DNA of 64,000 nt from Escherichia phage Sa157lw. The stretch lies in sequence record OK322699.1. One strand, given 5' to 3'. Below are positions 5,266 through 57,764 of this stretch, piece after piece. The notes under the pieces are model-generated. The model was not told where the DNA came from. It made no database searches and worked only from the letters and a program-made list of their open reading frames with translations. Position 1 is the first letter of the stretch; each line of letters opens with the position of its first letter. Position numbers and translations under genes: made by a program.

Positions 5266-5302
5266 CTAAATACCCCATATTGGACATCCTTTATGGGGTA
5301 TT
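5266..5302 (+). promoter_or_regulatory. late-promoter motif CTAAATACCCC (5266-5276) within an 11-bp inverted repeat (5269-5279 / 5292-5302)
   Basis: AATACCCCATA / TATGGGGTATT exact reverse complements; right arm contains the GGGG SD of the ATG at 5306. Confidence 0.6.
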
Positions 5303-5305
5303 ATC

Positions 5306-7475: not shown

Positions 7476-7513
7476 CTAAATACCCCATATTGGCAAATCC
7501 TTATGGGGTATTT
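7476..7513 (+). promoter_or_regulatory. late-promoter motif CTAAATACCCC (7476-7486) within a 12-bp inverted repeat (7478-7489 / 7502-7513)
   Basis: AAATACCCCATA / TATGGGGTATTT exact reverse complements; right arm contains the SD for the ATG at 7518. Confidence 0.6.
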
Positions 7514-7517
7514 TCAA

Positions 7518-22997: not shown

Positions 22998-24893
22998 ATG
23001 GCAACTCAAAGCTTCAGCGTTGCGCCGTCCGTACAGTGGACTGAGCGTGATGCCACGCTTCAGACTTCTCCGTCCGTGGTTGTTCAGGGCGCGACAGTCG
23101 GCAAATTTCAATGGGGTGAAGTCGAACTCCCAGTGCTGGTGACTGGTGGTGAGACGGGTTTGGTGAAGAAATTCTTCAAACCTAATGACAGCACTGCGAC
23201 AGATTTCCTTGTGATTGCAGACTTTTTGTCTTACAGCTCTATGGCATGGGTCACTCGTGTTGTTGGTCCTCTGGCCAAGAACTCTGTCACCAAAGGCCAG
23301 ACAGCCATCACGATCAAAAACAAGCTGGATTTTGAAACAGCAAGTCCGTCAGCGTCTATCACTTGGGCTGGTCGTTATCCAGGATCTCTGGGGAATGACA
23401 TCGCCATCAATGTTTGTGACTCCGCTGGATTCCCGACATGGGAATTCCGTAACAACTTTGCGTACGCACCTCAGTCTGGTGAATTCCATGTTGTGGTTGT
23501 AGACAAAGTTGGGCGCATTACTGACTCTGCTGGTGCGGTTGGTCAGGTTGACCGTATCTCTGTTTCTGGCACGGCAACCGCAGCTGGCACCATCAGTGTG
23601 GCGGGTGAAGATATCGCATATCTGGATACTGATACTCCGGCCACTTTGGCGACCAAAATTGGCGCGGCGCTGACGGCGCTAACAGATGTTTATTCTTCTG
23701 TCGTTGTTAAGTCTAACACTGTCATCGTGACCCATAAAGCCATTGGTCCCCAGACAGTTACTGCTATTGTTCCAGATGATAAGGGGCTGACTGCAACCGC
23801 CGTGATTACCACTGTTGGCGCATCTGGTTCTATTATCGAAAAATACGAACTCATGCAGAACACACAGGGTTCCAAAAAGTCCGATGGCGCGAATGCGTAC
23901 TTCAAAGATGTCATCAATGATACATCAAATTGGGTGTACACCTTCGCCACCGCTCTGGCCGCAGGTGTTGTTGAATTAGAAGGCGGCGTAGACGACTACA
24001 ATATCAACCGTGTCGCGGCTATCCAAGTTCTGAACAACGCCGAAGCATATGATGCGAAGCCAGTATTTGCATACTGTGAAGAGTTGATTGAACAACAGGC
24101 ATTAATCGACTTGTCTACCGAGCGAAAAGACACCGTTTCCTTCGTGTCGCCTTTGCGTGATACTGTGGTCGGCAACCGTGGCCGTGAGATGGACGATGTG
24201 GTCGCTTGGCGTGAAAGTCTGGTGCGCGACTCCTCCTATTTCTTCATGGACGACAACTGGGCATACGTGTACGATAAATACAACGATAAGATGCGCTGGA
24301 TCCCTGCTTGCGGCGGTACAGCGGGTGTTTGGGCACGTAGTATTGAAATCGCGGGTATCTACAAATCTCCTGCGTTCCACAACCGTGGCAAATACAACAA
24401 CTACAATCGAATGGCGTGGTCTGCGTCTTCCGATGAACGTGCCGTGTTGTACCGCAACCAGATTAACAGCATCGTGACCTTCTCCAATGAAGGTATCGTG
24501 TTGTATGGTGACAAAACTGGTCTGACTCGTCCGTCTGCTTTCGATCGTATCAATGTTCGCGGTCTGTTTATTATGGCAGAACAGAACATCGCTGCAATCG
24601 CCAAATATTACCTTGGTGAGAACAATGATGCGTTCACTCGCAGTCTGTTCAGCAACGCTGTTCGTCCTTATATTCGCCAGCTGGCAAATATGGGTGCGAT
24701 CTACGATGGTAAAGTCAAGTGTGACGAAGATAACAACACTGCTGACGTTATTGCGGCAAACCAGATGGTCGCTGGTATCTGGCTGAAACCGGAATACAGC
24801 ATCAATTGGGTGTATCTTGACTTTGCTGCAGTTCGTCCGGATATGGAGTTCTCGGAAATTGAATCCGGCGGCGGCATCGTTGCTGCTTCTTAA
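22998..24893 (+). CDS. gp18: tail sheath protein gp18
   Basis: ATG 22998 with GAAGGAA SD; GKFQWGEV and DKYNDKMRWIP motifs match T4 gp18 (GKFQWGP, DKYNDVNRWVP). Confidence 0.9.
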   Translation: MATQSFSVAPSVQWTERDATLQTSPSVVVQGATVGKFQWGEVELPVLVTGGETGLVKKFFKPNDSTATDFLVIADFLSYSSMAWVTRVVGPLAKNSVTKGQTAITIKNKLDFETASPSASITWAGRYPGSLGNDIAINVCDSAGFPTWEFRNNFAYAPQSGEFHVVVVDKVGRITDSAGAVGQVDRISVSGTATAAGTISVAGEDIAYLDTDTPATLATKIGAALTALTDVYSSVVVKSNTVIVTHKAIGPQTVTAIVPDDKGLTATAVITTVGASGSIIEKYELMQNTQGSKKSDGANAYFKDVINDTSNWVYTFATALAAGVVELEGGVDDYNINRVAAIQVLNNAEAYDAKPVFAYCEELIEQQALIDLSTERKDTVSFVSPLRDTVVGNRGREMDDVVAWRESLVRDSSYFFMDDNWAYVYDKYNDKMRWIPACGGTAGVWARSIEIAGIYKSPAFHNRGKYNNYNRMAWSASSDERAVLYRNQINSIVTFSNEGIVLYGDKTGLTRPSAFDRINVRGLFIMAEQNIAAIAKYYLGENNDAFTRSLFSNAVRPYIRQLANMGAIYDGKVKCDEDNNTADVIAANQMVAGIWLKPEYSINWVYLDFAAVRPDMEFSEIESGGGIVAAS

Positions 24894-24899
24894 AAGATC

Positions 24900-24927
24900 A
24901 ACCCCGCTTCGGCGGGGTTTTCCTTTA
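24900..24927 (+). terminator. rho-independent terminator (AACCCCGC-TTCG-GCGGGGTT plus T-run)
   Basis: Same stem as terminators at 7418, 12135, 31257, 47268. Confidence 0.65.
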
Positions 24928-24949
24928 TCCCACATATTTGAGTTATTGA

Positions 24950-25408
24950 ATGATATACGCATACAAAATTGAAATGGTTTGTAATGGAAAGGTCTACATC
25001 GGTGTGACCAATGACCCACAACGAAGATATGATCAGCATTTTGCGAATGCCTTTCATCATGGCGTCCAAAGTGAATTGTATGACGCCATGCGTAAGTATG
25101 GAACATCTGGATTTACTTTCGTTGTAATTGCTCAGACCGATGAAGTCCATAAATGGGAATTAGAGAAGCAACTCATCGCTCAATATAATTCTTATGAGAT
25201 GGGTTACAACATGAATAAAGGCGGTAATGATGGAAGTCATATGCTGGGTAAAACTGCAGCAAAATTGACATCCACAGGTGAACACATTGGTCTTGTTTCT
25301 CTCATAGATCCCCGTTGGGAATTGTGTGAAATCGAACCTGTTTCAAGTAATGTTCATCATAGTTTCGATCTTTCTTCTATGAAGATTAAAAGATTGACGA
25401 CTAATTAG
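24950..25408 (+). CDS. GIY-YIG endonuclease (putative homing endonuclease)
   Basis: N-terminal IYAYKIE...GKVYIGVT...R...H...E fits the GIY-YIG catalytic motif; inserted between the sheath and tube genes. Confidence 0.65.
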   Translation: MIYAYKIEMVCNGKVYIGVTNDPQRRYDQHFANAFHHGVQSELYDAMRKYGTSGFTFVVIAQTDEVHKWELEKQLIAQYNSYEMGYNMNKGGNDGSHMLGKTAAKLTSTGEHIGLVSLIDPRWELCEIEPVSSNVHHSFDLSSMKIKRLTTN

Positions 25409-31236: not shown

Positions 31237-31256
31237 TCAACAGGTTTTGATAAACA

Positions 31257-31285
31257 AACCCCGCCATGTGCGGGGTTTTTCTTTA
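31257..31285 (+). terminator. rho-independent terminator (AACCCCGC-CATGT-GCGGGGTT plus T-run)
   Basis: Directly after the major capsid gene stop. Confidence 0.7.
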
Positions 31286-31330
31286 TAGGGATTCACTATA
31301 AGACCGCTAATAGTTTTCAATAAGTGGGCA

Positions 31331-31567
31331 ATGAACGATCATTACCTAACTTTCACAACTGGAACGCTACTCATGGCTAAAGAAACTCTGACTAAAGAAA
31401 ACTCTAACTTCGCAGAATGGCATGCAGAATTAGAGCGTGTCGCTCGTTCTCAACATGGCTCTGCCGCCGATGCTATGGCGTGGCATGAAGATTATGAGTC
31501 TGGCAAAACCCCGCGTCAGGCTTGGGAAGATGAATGGGGGTGGAATGATGCAGACTCTAATTCGTAA
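31331..31567 (+). CDS. hypothetical protein
   Basis: ORF with ATG; weak SD; no homology recognised. Confidence 0.35.
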   Translation: MNDHYLTFTTGTLLMAKETLTKENSNFAEWHAELERVARSQHGSAADAMAWHEDYESGKTPRQAWEDEWGWNDADSNS

Positions 31568-32617: not shown

Positions 32618-32850
32618 AAATCAAAAAGATAGGCGCAAGCCCATTGACGGGAACAATCTTCCAGGGTACTTTGAACACCAAGACCAGTATGTGGGTCGGT
32701 GAGAAGACTGATGTGACTAACGACTGTGTAGCGGCTACGGCTGAACACATGCGTCACATCAAGAAAGACTACTGCTTCCCTACTAAAGACGGCAAGTTCC
32801 TGGTGCTGAGCGCTGAGGTTCACGACACCCTTCCTGATCGCTTCAAATAA
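32614..32850 (+). CDS. hypothetical protein
   Basis: ATG 32614 with GGAGAA SD overlapping previous stop (ATGA). Confidence 0.4.
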   Translation: MKIKKIGASPLTGTIFQGTLNTKTSMWVGEKTDVTNDCVAATAEHMRHIKKDYCFPTKDGKFLVLSAEVHDTLPDRFK

Positions 32851-32953
32851 ATTTAAAATTTATTCAATAAACGGGGTTTACTTCTTCAATAAACCCCGTA
32901 TACTTCATTCCATAAGCAGCACAACACTGACTCTGAAATGAAGGAACTACACC

Positions 32954-33391
32954 ATGACCACAGCAAAAGTTACCATCTACGCTTTCGACGCTTTCTCTAA
33001 ATTTGACGCATTCGTCTCCTCCGCATTTGGTATCAAAGAAGTTGAAGCAGAGAAAACTTTCTGTGGTGGACTCGGCAAGTTTGCCAACCTGAGTTTATCC
33101 CTGACAGAGTTCATGAAATCTCTTGAAGGTCACTTTGACGCCGAAACCATTCGCACTTCCTTACTCAAGAAAGACGGCACCCCTCGCAAACTGTCTGGCA
33201 AGACTAGAATTTACGATGCTGACGGCTTTACTGTGTCTGTGCATTTTACTGAAGAACCTGTGTACGAACTTTTCAGCGGGTCTGAGGACCTCACTCACTA
33301 TGTGGTCAGGAAAGGCGATTCCCGCCCTGTGTTCGAATCTGGCGACATCCTCGCCGCTATCAAAGAACTTGCGCGTCTGAATAGCCTCTAA
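32954..33391 (+). CDS. hypothetical protein
   Basis: ORF with GAAGGAA SD. Confidence 0.5.
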   Translation: MTTAKVTIYAFDAFSKFDAFVSSAFGIKEVEAEKTFCGGLGKFANLSLSLTEFMKSLEGHFDAETIRTSLLKKDGTPRKLSGKTRIYDADGFTVSVHFTEEPVYELFSGSEDLTHYVVRKGDSRPVFESGDILAAIKELARLNSL

Positions 33392-34440: not shown

Positions 34441-34468
34441 TTAAATACCCCCAAAATTGGGGGTATTT
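34441..34468 (+). promoter_or_regulatory. late-promoter motif TTAAATACCCCC within an 11-bp perfect palindrome (34443-34453 / 34458-34468, 4-nt loop)
   Basis: AAATACCCCCA / TGGGGGTATTT exact reverse complements; right arm contains the GGGGG SD of the ATG at 34471. Confidence 0.6.
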
Positions 34469-43411: not shown

Positions 43412-43433
43412 TATAAACCGTTATTCATTAAAC

Positions 43434-43465
43434 AACAGAGGCTATAATGGCCTCTGTTTTTGTAT
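43434..43465 (+). terminator. terminator hairpin (ACAGAGGC-TATAATG-GCCTCTGT plus T-run)
   Basis: Perfect 8-bp stem followed by TTTTTGTATT. Confidence 0.55.
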
Positions 43466-44704: not shown

Positions 44705-44816
44705 AGAATCGCTTTACTTCATTCTTCAATAACCCCCTTTCAACGTATATTGACCTCACTTTAACGACGCGCCCATTTAGGGCGCTCAATTTGAACTGAA
44801 ACAGGAAGACTATACC

Positions 44817-46838
44817 ATGGCAGAATTCAAACCTTTCGCAACGGCTGTTAATGATAACGTGCTGGCGATGTCCGCAACTGGTCTGTTTATGACCAACGTT
44901 GATAAAGATGCTCTGTGGGATTTGTATTTGGCATCCTTCCCAGCTGGTACCAACCCGATGTACCGCGAACGCACTGAACACGACTGCACCTGCTGTAAAC
45001 AATTCATCCGTAATATCGGCGGCGTCGTGACTATCGATGCTGACCTGAACGTTATCTCGATTTGGGACAACATTGAGCTGGGTAACGAATACGACGTGGT
45101 GGCTGCGGCGCTGTCGACCTTCGTTAAACAACACGCAATCGTCGACGTGTATTTCAACGATTCTGCTAAAGTCGGCCTGTCTCATAACCACGAATCTGGT
45201 GAAGACGGCAAAATCCGCACGTATAACCATTTCCACACCGAACTGCTCGGCAGCTATGTCCTGCGTTCTGATGCTATTGCATCTAAAAAAGGTGAAATCC
45301 GACAGGCTATCGAATTATTTGAACGCGGTCTGCGTGAAATTACTCTGGAATCAGCAGAAATCGTTCTGGAATTGATTGATCAGAATTCTTTGTATCGCGG
45401 CGCTGAACATAAAGCTGCGGTGATGGGCTTCGTAGTAGCCAAGACGGCATATGAAGAAATCCCAGAATCTAACCGTTCTCTGTGGGCATGGCGCACTGGT
45501 TATCGTTCAAACAATCATGTTCCACATGGCATTCGCAACACCGTTATCGGTACTCTGTTGACTGATATCAGTGAAGGCGTGGAACTGGAAAAGGCCGTTA
45601 AGTCGTTTGAAACCAAAGTTGCCCCAGCGAACTACAAACGCCCGACGGCTCTGGTCTCCAAGTCCATGATCGAAAACGCTCAGAAAGAAGTGATTGCTCT
45701 CGGTCTGGAAGATTCGCTGGCGCGTCGTTATGCAGTTTATGACGACCTGACGATCAATAACGTTCTGTTTGCAGACCTGGCTGCTCAAAAAGCGATGGAT
45801 CCATTCGCTCAACTGGCCGCCGAAGTGAAAACGCCGACCAAGTCGCTGGATAAAGTTGAAGAGATTGGCATTGACGACTTCCTGAGCAATATCCTGCCGA
45901 AAGCGCATTCAATGGAAGTGCTGGTTGAAAACTCGCATACTGGCAACCTTATGTCTCTGGTCGCTCCGGCTATTGCAGGTGCTCCTAACCTTTTCAAATG
46001 GGGCAACGGTTTCTCATGGTCATACAACGGCGAAGTGGCCGACTCCATCAAAGAGCGTGTGAAAGCGGCTGGCGGTAAAGTCGACGGGTTCCTCCGTGTA
46101 TCCCTGGCTTGGCACAACAACGATGACCTCGATCTGCATATGTTCTTTAACAATATGGAACATGTGTACTTCCGCGATCGTCGTTCAATGACTGGTGCTC
46201 ATCTCGATATCGACATGAACGGTATGGACGGCATCGACCCGAACCGCTCTCCGGTAGAAAACATCATCTTCACTGATGAAAGAAAGCTGCGTGACGGTGA
46301 ATATCGTTTTGAGATTCACAACTACAACCAACGTGAAAAGATCGACGAAGGGTTTGAAATTGAAGTTGAATACAAAGGCGCTACGCAACGTTTTAGCCAC
46401 AATGGGTTAAAAGACCAGGGGCGCATCACTGCCGTCGTTCTGACTGTTAAAGACAAACAAGTCGTTAGCATCAAGTCTGAGCTGGCGAATGTTGATAAAT
46501 CCAAAGAAATTTGGGGCATTAAGACAGCGACCTTCCAGAAGGTACAGCTGGTCCTGAACTCACCAAACCATTGGGATGGTGAACAAACTGGCAACAAGCA
46601 CGTCTTCTTCATCTTGGAAGGTTGTGCGAATCCTGAAGGTACTCGTGGTTTCTACAATGAATATCTGAAGCCGGAACTGGATAAACATCGTAAGGTTTTT
46701 GAAATGTTGGGTAGTAAAATGAAAGTACAACCCAACGAAAACCAACTGTCTGGTTTGGGGTTCTCGACAACGCAACGCAACCATGTGTTCGTCAAAGTGT
46801 CCGGCGCGTTTAACCGTACTGTAAAAGTCATTTTCTAA
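44817..46838 (+). CDS. hypothetical protein (673 aa)
   Basis: Long ORF with AGGAAG SD; no P-loop or other motif recognised. Confidence 0.5.
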   Translation: MAEFKPFATAVNDNVLAMSATGLFMTNVDKDALWDLYLASFPAGTNPMYRERTEHDCTCCKQFIRNIGGVVTIDADLNVISIWDNIELGNEYDVVAAALSTFVKQHAIVDVYFNDSAKVGLSHNHESGEDGKIRTYNHFHTELLGSYVLRSDAIASKKGEIRQAIELFERGLREITLESAEIVLELIDQNSLYRGAEHKAAVMGFVVAKTAYEEIPESNRSLWAWRTGYRSNNHVPHGIRNTVIGTLLTDISEGVELEKAVKSFETKVAPANYKRPTALVSKSMIENAQKEVIALGLEDSLARRYAVYDDLTINNVLFADLAAQKAMDPFAQLAAEVKTPTKSLDKVEEIGIDDFLSNILPKAHSMEVLVENSHTGNLMSLVAPAIAGAPNLFKWGNGFSWSYNGEVADSIKERVKAAGGKVDGFLRVSLAWHNNDDLDLHMFFNNMEHVYFRDRRSMTGAHLDIDMNGMDGIDPNRSPVENIIFTDERKLRDGEYRFEIHNYNQREKIDEGFEIEVEYKGATQRFSHNGLKDQGRITAVVLTVKDKQVVSIKSELANVDKSKEIWGIKTATFQKVQLVLNSPNHWDGEQTGNKHVFFILEGCANPEGTRGFYNEYLKPELDKHRKVFEMLGSKMKVQPNENQLSGLGFSTTQRNHVFVKVSGAFNRTVKVIF

Positions 46839-46875: not shown

Positions 46876-47247
46876 ATGTTTGATCAAGCAACCCGTTTAA
46901 AACTGCGTTTTAACTCTAACAAAGGTCTGCTGTCTGTTGAGCAGGTTTGGGATCTGAATCTGAACGCACTGAACGAGCTGGCGAAAGATCTGAGCCGTCA
47001 GGTGAAAGAAGCAGCCAGCGATGAAGAAGACTTCATCGGTGTGAAAAGCGCGGTCGATTCTCAGTTACAACTGCGGTTCGATATCGTGAAAGCGATCATC
47101 GGTGTTAAACTGAAAGAACGCGATGAAAGCGCGACCGCAGCAGAGCGTAAAGCGAACAACCAGGCGATCATGGAACTGATCCAGCGTAAGAAACAACAGG
47201 AACTGGAAGGTCTGTCTGTTGAAGAACTGGAAAAACTCCTGAAATAA
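46876..47247 (+). CDS. hypothetical protein
   Basis: AAGGAA SD; charged, helical-looking. Confidence 0.5.
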   Translation: MFDQATRLKLRFNSNKGLLSVEQVWDLNLNALNELAKDLSRQVKEAASDEEDFIGVKSAVDSQLQLRFDIVKAIIGVKLKERDESATAAERKANNQAIMELIQRKKQQELEGLSVEELEKLLK

Positions 47248-47267
47248 TCTGACGGCTCCGGCCTGAG

Positions 47268-47296
47268 AAACCCCGCCGTGTGCGGGGTTTCTTTTG
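47268..47296 (+). terminator. rho-independent terminator (AAACCCCGC-loop-GCGGGGTTT plus T-run)
   Basis: Perfect stem after stop at 47247. Confidence 0.65.
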
Positions 47297-48658: not shown

Positions 48659-48925
48659 TTCTTCAAAAGTCTTTCAAAATCAATAACGTCCGGCAAAATG
48701 CTGGGCGTTTCAATTAATAAGCCAAGGTATAATGGCCCAACTGAAAACGCGGGGGAATTTCTTTGTCCAAGCCATTCATTCGTTCCGGAGTTGATTCTCT
48801 AGACTCCCAATTTAAGCCGAGCGAAGTTTTAATCCAACAAATTGAAACCAATCGTGAATTCATAGAACACATGTTGGCAAAGCCGGAAGGCGAAGCCGCT
48901 CAAACCACCAAAGAAGGTAATAACG

Positions 48926-51150: not shown

Positions 51151-51175
51151 GGCGGGGAAACCCGCCTTTACTTTC
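51151..51175 (+). terminator. terminator hairpin (GGCGGG-GAAA-CCCGCC plus T-rich tail)
   Basis: Perfect stem with GAAA tetraloop after VWA gene stop. Confidence 0.5.
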
Positions 51176-51186
51176 AGGAAATGAAT

Positions 51187-51506: not shown

Positions 51507-51538
51507 AATCCCCAATATTTATTGGGGATTTTTACTTT
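51507..51538 (+). terminator. rho-independent terminator (AATCCCCAAT-ATTT-ATTGGGGATT plus T-run)
   Basis: Perfect 10-bp stem after the ACP-like gene stop. Confidence 0.6.
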
Positions 51539-51618
51539 TAGGGGTTTACTTCTTCTAAAGAATATCCTATTATTCAATAACTGGCTAACGTGGGGTTGGC
51601 TAGAAAAGGAGATACAAA

Positions 51619-51858
51619 ATGAAACTACCAGGTCATATTGAAGTTTATATGCGGTTATACAAAGAAGGTAACGCCGCTGCTAAAGAACTACACGAACTGA
51701 TTTTGTCATACGGCGTTAAGTCTGTTACAGAAGTAAAGAACAACAAAATAGACGGCGAATATGTGTCAATCAATGGGCGTGGTCTGAAAACCAACCCAAC
51801 ATATTTTGTGGGTGTCCATTTAGACACAGGGAAAGAAGTCGTGGAGATCGTGGCATAA
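51619..51858 (+). CDS. hypothetical protein
   Basis: AAGGAG SD. Confidence 0.5.
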   Translation: MKLPGHIEVYMRLYKEGNAAAKELHELILSYGVKSVTEVKNNKIDGEYVSINGRGLKTNPTYFVGVHLDTGKEVVEIVA

Positions 51859-52097: not shown

Positions 52098-52181
52098 TTC
52101 TATAAACTCCGGCGGGGTATGATTACCCCGCCTATTTGAAATTGCAGGAACTTATATCATGATCTCTGTCGAGGGTATAAT

Positions 52182-53111: not shown

Positions 53112-53190
53112 ATACGATAGTTTATTGAAACCCTTTACTCAACATGGTGACAGCCCTATCATTTTATCCAATGAAATAAGGAGAATCACC

Positions 53191-55054: not shown

Positions 55055-55111
55055 TTCAATAACATTAGGGCGGTTATTATTAAACCGCCTTTTATTTGAG
55101 AGATCTATATT

Positions 55112-55780
55112 ATGAATAAGAAGAGTCGTATCATCATCGGCGCGGATCAGGGAAATCTGTATTTTGATACAACTGGTGCTATTGCCCACGCCATCCTTCC
55201 AACAGGTATTTCTGTTTATTGTGTCGAACACCCAGATCCAGCGATCAAACGACTTTGTTACATCCATCGTGAAAAGGGATTGATTGTATTACCGGAAGGC
55301 GCAATTATGCGCGCTCGTTCTTGGCCGATCGATTTTAATTCCATGACCGCCAGAGAGATTGACGCCCGTTTCTTCGCATACAATATGAATCGAACTTTAA
55401 GGAACGAAACTCAAAGAGTTGCCCATTTCGATAATGAAACATATACCGTGACATTAGAATTTCGCGTTCTTGGTGAAGCTCTTCAGGTAAAGAAAACGAG
55501 TTGGGCAACCGAAGGGACGTTTACCAATGATTATGCTCTTATCGATAGATTGTGTAATCGGTTCCGAATTAGCCTGACTGCGAATGAAGATTTGGGAGAA
55601 TATGTATCATGGACAGCTCGTTCTCCACATATGAATGGGATCATGATGGAGAGCGGGACTCGTAATCGTGCTGTTCTTCAGCTGCTGTTGTTAGATGCGT
55701 ATTCTCGCAATCCTCTGGAATATTTGTCTCGAGAGCAAATCGACAACGCTCTTTCCCATTGCAATCATCTGGAGGTGTGA
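55112..55780 (+). CDS. hypothetical protein
   Basis: Preceded by the GAGAGATCTATATT element shared with the gene at 31794. Confidence 0.5.
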   Translation: MNKKSRIIIGADQGNLYFDTTGAIAHAILPTGISVYCVEHPDPAIKRLCYIHREKGLIVLPEGAIMRARSWPIDFNSMTAREIDARFFAYNMNRTLRNETQRVAHFDNETYTVTLEFRVLGEALQVKKTSWATEGTFTNDYALIDRLCNRFRISLTANEDLGEYVSWTARSPHMNGIMMESGTRNRAVLQLLLLDAYSRNPLEYLSREQIDNALSHCNHLEV

Positions 55781-57681: not shown

Positions 57682-57764
57682 ACGCTTTATTCAATAATAT
57701 TTGTTAGGTAAGCTGTAGTCCTCTTGTAGTGAAACATTGTAAACAACTAACTGGAGTAATCCGA

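Follow-up and report, generated by a model that had tools for sequence, protein, structure and literature searches.

What kind of signal lies in the intergenic gap just upstream of position 32954 in a stretch of 64,000 nt from Escherichia phage Sa157lw (OK322699.1)? This stretch, referred to as the window, carries nearly all of its genes on the plus strand. The original prediction described here a recurring element (GGGGTTTACTTCTTCAATAAACCCC at 32873-32897) overlapping a 10-bp perfect inverted repeat, and took it for a possible early or middle promoter, or else a site bound by a regulator. That proposal is supported by a -35/-10 pair, by its recurrence and conservation and by the annotation of a related phage, Dickeya phage LIMEstone1. 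Our best explanation, to which we assign a probability of roughly 75%, is that the element is one copy of a portable early-gene expression cassette, a composite promoter and stem-loop unit of the kind known as promoter-early stem-loop (PeSL).

The window belongs to the genus Kuttervirus (ViI-like phages, Ackermannviridae) and is 99.8% identical to Salmonella phage sal1 and 99.1% identical to Vi01. The motif was followed genome-wide in the full, assembled genomes of LIMEstone1 and of sal1 (MT499896.1), the closest complete genome, and the gene context of the copies in the window was read from the sal1 annotation. The site lies 1.6 kb 3' of the major capsid gene, between a gene for a hypothetical protein of 78 aa, which ends at 32850, and one for a hypothetical protein of 145 aa, which starts at 32954. 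The TAA stop codon of the former (32848-32850) is followed by atttaaaatttaTTCAATAAacggggTTTACTtcTTCAATAAaccccgTATACTtcattccataagcagcacaacactgactctgaaatGAAGGAActacaccATG. The parts of the site, as read from the sequence, are:

32842-32870, plus strand: AT-rich upstream tract, about 93% A+T, at about -40 to -70, the position of an UP element
32871-32899, plus strand: hairpin with a 10-bp perfect stem and a 9-nt loop, covering the -35 hexamer and the spacer
32876-32882, plus strand: predicted -35 element (G)TTTACT of the T4-early type, in the arrangement TTTACT-N16-TATACT; invariant in 10/10 aligned copies
32882-32892, plus strand: TTCTTCAATAA box (with TTCAATAA at 32885-32892), in the spacer, ending 6 bp 5' of the -10
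32899-32904, plus strand: predicted -10 hexamer TATACT; T, A, T and the last T invariant in the alignment
32905-32953, plus strand: leader, about 42 nt long from the predicted start, with the Shine-Dalgarno (SD) sequence GAAGGAA at 32940-32946, before the ATG at 32954
32954-33391, plus strand: downstream open reading frame (ORF), 145 aa, hypothetical, behind the cassette; fast-evolving or replaced among relatives

The sigma70-type pair TTTACT-N16-TATACT spans 32877-32904, and its -10 ends 49 nt 5' of the start codon of a plus-strand gene, the SD sequence and ATG lying 36-50 nt 3' of the -10. The original prediction had treated the locus as a single bipartite element. The element is indeed recurrent, but TTTACT is better read as the -35 hexamer and TTCAATAA as a separate box, which at this site falls in the spacer. 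Another copy of TTCAATAA (32863-32870) lies in the upstream tract as part of the near-palindrome TTATTCAATAA, and an A/T-rich tract of the form TTATT(C/G)AATAA also stands 5' of the paralogous copies. In the mechanism that we infer, host sigma70 RNA polymerase would bind the UP-like tract, TTTACT and TATACT right after infection. Transcription would begin near 32912 (the start is predicted at 32911-32912, 7 nt past the -10), and the short conserved leader with its strong SD sequence would drive translation of the small accessory ORF.

The genome-wide motif search that the original prediction recommended gave a clear intergenic enrichment. In sal1, 25 of the 42 copies of TTCAATAA are intergenic, although intergenic DNA makes up only 8.5% of the genome. 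A Markov model of the intergenic DNA itself gives an expectation of 1.2 intergenic copies (binomial P ~1e-16), and the enrichment is about 20-fold. The window holds 14 copies vs 4.0 expected, a number reached by no shuffle, together with 9 copies of TTTACTTC vs 2.4 expected and 2 copies of TTTACTTC-N0-6-TTCAATAA vs 0.00 expected. Of eight TTCAATAA copies on the plus strand of the window, seven are intergenic and upstream of non-structural genes, as had been claimed.

We also used 104 upstream regions of sal1, oriented by gene, and counted hexamers at fixed distances from -10-like hexamers. In this unbiased dyad count, TTCAAT at distance 14, TCAATA at 13 and CAATAA at 12 were found in 8, 6 and 6 regions, respectively, and TTTACT at 17 and 16 in 5 and 3 regions; no TTGACA-like hexamer ranks in the list from these regions. 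The flagged site belongs to the TTTACT class. This layout stands before at least nine genes of sal1, mostly small hypothetical ORFs, and is in all cases intergenic and in the sense orientation. Using looser criteria (TTTAC, N16-18 and a -10 matching at least 4/6), 33 hits were obtained in sal1, 12 of them intergenic, and nine form a clear set of cassettes before genes.

The box TTCAATAA, in its fuller form TTCTTCAATAA, is a separate box and, judged by its position, the -30 box of a putative second promoter class. In most intergenic copies it stands 12±1 bp 5' of a -10, with no usable -35. A strict composite of TTCAATAA-N11-13 followed by a match of at least 5/6 to TATAAT was found 9 times in sal1 vs 0.08 in shuffles and 6 times in LIMEstone1 vs 0.05. 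All 10 hits to exact TTCAATAA plus N11-13 and a -10 in sal1 are intergenic and in the sense orientation; from the end of the -10 to the start codon there are 18-75 nt, except in one hit with 210 nt. These counts bear on another alternative, a chance similarity of A/T-rich intergenic sequence. Intergenic DNA is somewhat richer in A/T (42.6% GC vs 45.1% in coding DNA), but the 25 intergenic copies were set against an expectation derived from intergenic DNA, the composite patterns are more than 100-fold above shuffles, and the exact composite -30-box hits and the cassette copies are all sense-oriented. On the composite statistics and the intergenic enrichment we rejected chance, the probability of which is close to nil.

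Conservation was evaluated with a query of 106 nt against phage records. The 281 records with a match contain the cassette at 774 places (about 2.75 detectable copies per genome); in 260 of them the identity is at least 90%, vs mostly 80-90% for the surrounding 4 kb. Identical or almost identical copies are present in CBA120, Maynard, Dickeya phages PP35 and LIMEstone1 (of a different subfamily) and Klebsiella phages of the genus Taipeivirus. A cassette of about 105 nt is carried almost unchanged by nearly all ViI-like phages. A scan of IMG/VR for TTTACTTCTTCAATAA gave, among the matches listed, mostly single chance matches in unrelated contigs and a few contigs of about 157 kb. In an alignment of 10 orthologous and paralogous copies from four genera, the invariant blocks are TTTACTTCTTCAATA, the TAT..T of the -10 and TGAA..G.AGGAA.TA.A..ATG; the box itself is invariant through TTCAATA in 10/10 copies.

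The ORF behind the cassette is far more variable, with 38% amino acid identity to the CBA120 ORF and 52% to that of the Klebsiella phage. Between CBA120 and the window, the DNA upstream of the 32954 ORF is 92% identical and the protein only 38%. In Dickeya phage PP35 and Serratia phage 2050H1, unrelated ORFs follow the same cassette, and flanking genes are replaced between relatives. Such a pattern might also be obtained if the conservation reflected a role as recombination substrate, i.e. PeSL-type shuffling of ORFans between dispersed copies, and not transcription signals alone. The number of copies per genome would fit this, and so would LIMEstone1, where a second copy has 90% identity over the -10 and part of the leader, so that two copies have a common leader, while the sal1 paralog has diverged. 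Furthermore, sal1 holds at about 960-990 a tandem duplicate of the -35 plus box unit, TTTACCTCAATAAAAC TTTACTTCAATAAAAC, after a terminator hairpin, which looks like slippage or recombination between cassette copies. The papers on PeSLs describe such behaviour (PMC2839356, PMC4122927). However, blastn alignments to many Kuttervirus genomes break off about 60 nt into the downstream ORF and not at the cassette, and recombination alone leaves the fixed distance and orientation to start codons unexplained. We regard this explanation as possible, with odds clearly below even.

The portable early cassette has close counterparts. PeSL cassettes have been described for the T4-type phages RB49/phi1, PST/T4 and nt-1/KVP40 (Arbiol et al. 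2010, PMC2839356; Comeau et al. 2014, PMC4122927). In them an AT-rich tract and a sigma70-like early promoter are combined with a GC-rich stem-loop, most often between the boxes or overlapping the -10, and with an SD sequence and ATG. The cassettes are scattered close to variable ORFans and have been linked to modular shuffling (PMC2839356, PMC4122927). For PST/T4 the promoter consensus is TTTACW-N17-TAYWAT (PMC4122927). The arrangement TTTACT-N16/17-TATACT/TATTAT found here fits this consensus, the flagged spacer being 1 bp shorter. The AT-rich region is present at 32842-32870 and in the paralogs alike, and the GC-rich stem-loop lies across the -35 and spacer at the flagged site and 5' of the -35 or around the -10 in other copies. 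At the 3' end the SD sequence and ATG are conserved in all copies, and the TTTACT-type copies of sal1 are likewise dispersed between genes in front of small variable hypothetical ORFs.

There are also differences. The Ackermannviridae are a family not covered in those papers ('ViI' occurs 0 times in PMC4122927), the present cassette has the additional invariant box TCTTCAATAA, its leader of about 42 nt is conserved as well, and the flagged stem-loop has no T-run. In addition, promoter and terminator activity as well as recombination have been shown for RB49/phi1, whereas for the present cassette they are predicted from sequence.

T4 early promoters are of the 'UP/-35/TGn/-10' type (Hinton 2010, PMC2988021). 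The flagged site resembles them in its A/T-rich upstream tract, in a -35 shifted from TTGACA to TTTAC, in a near-consensus -10 and in the small early ORFs behind it; the TGn extended -10 usual in T4 early promoters is missing. The orthologous site of LIMEstone1, with 97% identity over 106-108 nt, has been annotated as 'putative early promoter' with the same hexamers, -35 GTTTAC and -10 TATACT (record HE600015, 94269-94297; Adriaenssens et al. 2012, PMC3296691). This annotation was made by similarity to the T4 consensus only (PMC3296691) and does not include the TTCAATAA box, the hairpin or the family-wide conservation. Other copies in LIMEstone1 are labelled early, middle or 'promoter', where 'middle' took the CTT inside TTTACTCTT or TTTACTTTC (the TTTACT region) as core of a MotA box. 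The early-promoter/PeSL kind is thus already known, and in a related phage the flagged site has been annotated in silico as a promoter.

Several observations weigh against reading the site as such a promoter. A generic sigma70 consensus scan gave 33 sites in the region vs 33.0 in shuffles and is uninformative alone, and the flagged site by itself is only a 9/12 match to the consensus. Therefore, the case for a promoter rests on recurrence and conservation. TATACT is preceded by CCCCG and the same scan returned 'no' for an extended -10 TG. The invariance of the spacer-proximal TCTTCAATA exceeds what recognition by sigma70 explains. ViI-type DNA carries hypermodified thymidines, and genes of the thymidine hypermodification pathway are present in the window; the modified bases could alter recognition of T-rich boxes. 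A literature search found no transcription-start, transcriptome/RNA-seq or in vitro data for any Ackermannviridae phage. As to the hairpin, its 3' tail is AUACUUCAUU, a poor U-tract, and a terminator scan made no call. Its arms are not conserved in the paralogs or in the copies of Serratia phages (Miltonvirus), and in the orthologs that keep the arms they never vary.

The hairpin itself is well defined. Its arms ACGGGGTTTA (32871-32880) and TAAACCCCGT (32890-32899) pair perfectly over 10 bp across a 9-nt loop, which bears out the inverted repeat originally reported, and its final base is the first T of the -10. Folded as RNA it reaches -14 kcal/mol (z = -4.55), and 0/200 shuffles fold as well. 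Perfect 10-bp stems are found at 8 distinct loci in the window (11 overlapping hits) vs 0.79 hits expected from shuffles. In one paralog a hairpin is placed 5' of the -35 instead. The 10-bp stem-loop is specific to the flagged copy and does not belong to the motif, and there is no support from covariation because the arms are invariant where present and absent elsewhere.

The stem-loop could be taken as the functional unit in its own right, i.e. a terminator, attenuator or RNase processing site closing the upstream five-gene unit, with the hexamers being incidental. It is stable and GC-rich and begins 21 nt past the stop codon at 32850, many neighbouring intergenic regions hold true terminators of hairpin and T-run, and in other cassette copies a terminator hairpin abuts TTTACT, the T-rich -35 region doubling as T-tract. 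Measured against intrinsic terminators, however, the hairpin is there but is followed by AUACUUCAUU and has a loop of 9 nt. Furthermore, the arms are the least conserved part in paralogs and distant orthologs, with TTTACTTCTTCAATA and the -10 remaining invariant, and the hexamers recur at fixed spacing where no hairpin exists. We consider this alternative improbable. Scanning positions 31000-58500 with Rfam covariance models gave no match at the flagged site with E <= 1.

Within the promoter cassette, the hairpin would act on read-through RNA from the upstream unit, as an attenuator or as a 3'-end structure insulating the neighbouring units, and not on the promoter itself. The upstream unit that feeds this read-through may begin at TTCAATAA-N13-GATCAT (31316), just past the capsid terminator. 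This RNA-level role is tentative, somewhat more doubtful than not, and is the weakest part of our explanation, since the hairpin lacks a U-tract and covariation and is copy-specific.

An imperfect hairpin can also be drawn in the leader, pairing 32903-32919 with 32927-32943, in which CUUCAUU, overlapping the -10 and lying 5' of the predicted start, pairs with AAUGAAG beside the SD sequence. It can form only in read-through RNA and not in RNA begun at the flagged promoter, so that translation of the 32954 ORF might depend on the promoter used. The same pairing, with partly different sequence, recurs in the copy at 45574 of sal1 and is not found in the copy at 126258.

The remaining copies in the window are, in order:

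31316-31342, plus strand: TTCAATAA-N13-GATCAT, a weaker -30-box site, just past the terminator of the major capsid gene (31256-31278)
43424-43458, plus strand: variant TTCATTAA-N11-TATAAT, with the -10 in the loop of a terminator hairpin (43434-43458), 5' of a thymine-hypermodification gene
44713-44751, plus strand: -30-box arrangement of TTTACTTC (44713-44720), TTCTTCAATAA (with TTCAATAA at 44725-44732), N13 and the -10 TATATT (44746-44751)
48709-48733, plus strand: variant TTCAATTA-N11-TATAAT
51507-51580, plus strand: terminator hairpin (51507-51530) and T-run, then GGGGTTTACTTCTTC, with the -35 at 51545-51550, N17, the -10 TATTAT at 51568-51573 and TTCAATAA at 51573-51580
52098-52123, plus strand: variant TTCTATAA-N12-TATGAT, with the -10 in a GC hairpin
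53134-53162, plus strand: promoter-like site TTTACT-N17-TATCAT, preceded by TTATTGAAA (reverse-strand TTCAATAA, 53122-53129)
55055-55091, plus strand: -30-box promoter TTCAATAA-N12-TATTAT (55055-55080), with the -10 in the loop of a terminator-like hairpin (55067-55091); gene start at 55112
57690-57697, plus strand: intergenic TTCAATAA with no convincing -10 at 11-13 bp

The related copies that had been reported at 44711-44737 and 51541-51580 were thus found exactly where described. The lone recurrences of TTCAATAA are real as well, but not at 55066 and 57689; they occupy 55055-55062 and 57690-57697. The copies at 31316, 32863 and, on the reverse strand, 53122 are additional. The 44713 copy stands 5' of a gene for 673 aa starting at 44817, and its LIMEstone1 ortholog, TTCTTCAATAA-N11-TATTAT, is annotated 'putative promoter' (prom3). 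Behind the 51507 copy a gene starts at 51619, and here the LIMEstone1 ortholog is annotated as putative early promoter (early4). At 51151-51180 a terminator hairpin, GGCGGGGAAACCCGCC, is directly joined by TTTACTTTCAGGAAATG with a -35-like TTTACT. A -10 would not fit between this hexamer and the start codon at 51181, so that the site is reminiscent of the 'half' or degraded cassettes known from PeSLs.

The -30-box sites precede the genes of the gp45/gp44 sliding clamp and clamp loader, the cluster of nucleotide kinase, thymidylate synthase and dUTPase, both thymine-hypermodification pyrophosphorylase genes and also other ORFans. In T4, functions of the clamp, nucleotide and hypermodification type are of the middle type. 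By this analogy, the two sets of genes suggest that the TTTACT class is immediate-early and the -30-box class delayed-early or middle. In 8 of 16 -30-box sites the -10 lies inside a hairpin of at least -13 kcal/mol in strength, mostly followed by a T-run (window: 43424-43458, 52098-52140 and 55055-55091; sal1: 34442-, 37240-, 41652-, 50357- and 151297+). One stretch, its -10 enclosed in the loop or stem of a terminator-like hairpin, thus does double duty, as terminator for the upstream unit and as promoter for the following one.

The arrangement is similar to T4 middle promoters and to the middle promoter/stem-loop (PmSL) units of nt-1 in having a box of 8-11 bp at 12±1 bp from a good -10 and no -35 (55055, 44725 and the 9 strict copies of sal1), and in standing often in or beside a stem-loop before genes of replication and nucleotide metabolism. 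It differs in that TTCAATAA is unrelated to the MotA box (a/t)(a/t)(a/t)TGCTTtA centred at -30 and that MotA and AsiA were not found here. In the flagged copy, moreover, just 6 bp separate the box from the -10, and the promoter has a -35. We know of no T4 counterpart of the conserved spacer box. To our knowledge, the flagged site also has no convincing match to the sites of the host regulators sigma32, sigma28, sigmaE, FNR, IHF and OmpR.

The invariance of TCTTCAATA beyond the sigma70 contacts points to another constraint, a bound factor or recombination. One explanation is that the (TTC)TTCAATAA box is the site of a dedicated, probably phage-encoded factor, which would replace -35 recognition at the -30-box promoters as an analogue of MotA/AsiA. 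At TTTACT promoters the same factor, sitting in the spacer, would modulate or shut off early transcription, and the explanation would therefore add to the early cassette. It agrees with a box conserved 8/8 at many sites at the spacing of the MotA box (PMC2988021), with the invariance of TCTTCAATA across the 10 copies and four genera, which sigma70 contacts do not explain, and with the target genes. At -30-box sites TTCAAT would leave a spacer of 14 bp, and no TTGACA-like hexamer is present at 16-18 bp.

On the other hand, sigma70 alone might be able to use a consensus -10 aided by nnTTCA, a partial -35 match placed at a 16-bp spacer. Moreover, the distance from box to -10 varies (6, 8, 10 and 12-14 bp), which would be unusual if one activator worked by position. 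No candidate box-binding protein is named, and no search for one was made among the approximately 200 phage proteins. Homology to MotA or AsiA was rejected: tblastn of the T4 proteins against sal1 and LIMEstone1 gave best E-values of 0.19-1.1, in agreement with the CBA120 genome paper (PMC3184105), and the matches listed from a phage collection were all in T4-type genomes.

We consider a dedicated factor of this kind possible but unlikely. The TCTTCAATA invariance and the use of the sequence as a -30 box elsewhere suggest an additional bound factor, recombination between copies or both, each with odds well below even. A still more speculative version is a two-class prereplicative programme, in which the TTTACT class is joined by a class (TTC)TTCAATAA-N12-TATAAT that would be read by sigma70 polymerase with a putative factor unrelated to MotA/AsiA, this factor also shutting off early promoters via the spacer box. 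If true, this doubtful scheme would mean that sigma appropriation had been invented independently and coupled to early shut-off.

Late promoters have a different motif, CTAAATAcCcc, before structural genes. At 5266-5305 and 7476-7515, between tailspike genes, the late-promoter-like CTAAATACCCC is the 5' arm of a perfect 10-bp repeat, ATACCCCAT...ATGGGGTAT, the 3' arm of which ends a few bases 5' of a start codon. A late promoter would here be joined to a leader hairpin, apparently in another kind of conserved cassette. A similar hairpin, AAATACCCCC/GGGGGTATTT, is found at 34443-34468.

Additionally, three observations were made elsewhere in the window. At about 24700-25100 it is without some 700 bp where sal1 holds a gene for a GIY-YIG endonuclease. 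In the tailspike region (7.9-12.2 kb) no exact 25-mers are common to the window and sal1, which points to different receptor-binding modules. A sub-threshold Rfam match to RsmY at 47170-47291 (27 bits vs a gathering score of 57, E = 0.005) ends in a perfect hairpin (47266-47292) in a gap of about 230 nt unannotated in sal1, and is most likely just a terminator.

The authors of the CBA120 genome paper state that their informatic analysis did not succeed in identifying early promoters of ViI-like phages and that MotA and AsiA are lacking (PMC3184105), and a 2024 review of Ackermannviridae does not mention promoters or transcription. The literature searched, outside of which lies the non-open-access "Viunalikevirus" paper, makes no mention of TTCAATAA in ViI-like phages. 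Nor does this literature describe the two-class picture, the -30 box TTCAATAA in phages lacking MotA/AsiA, or the family-wide invariance of the cassette.

In a phage family with wide use in biocontrol and as reporter phages, the two arrangements are candidate early and middle signals: TTTACT-N16/17-TATAnT cassettes before ORFans, and (TTC)TTCAATAA-N12-TATAAT sites before genes of replication, nucleotide metabolism and DNA modification. The near-invariant cassette of 105 nt may serve as a ready-made portable expression signal for phage engineering, and it is a likely site of gene shuffling in these phages.

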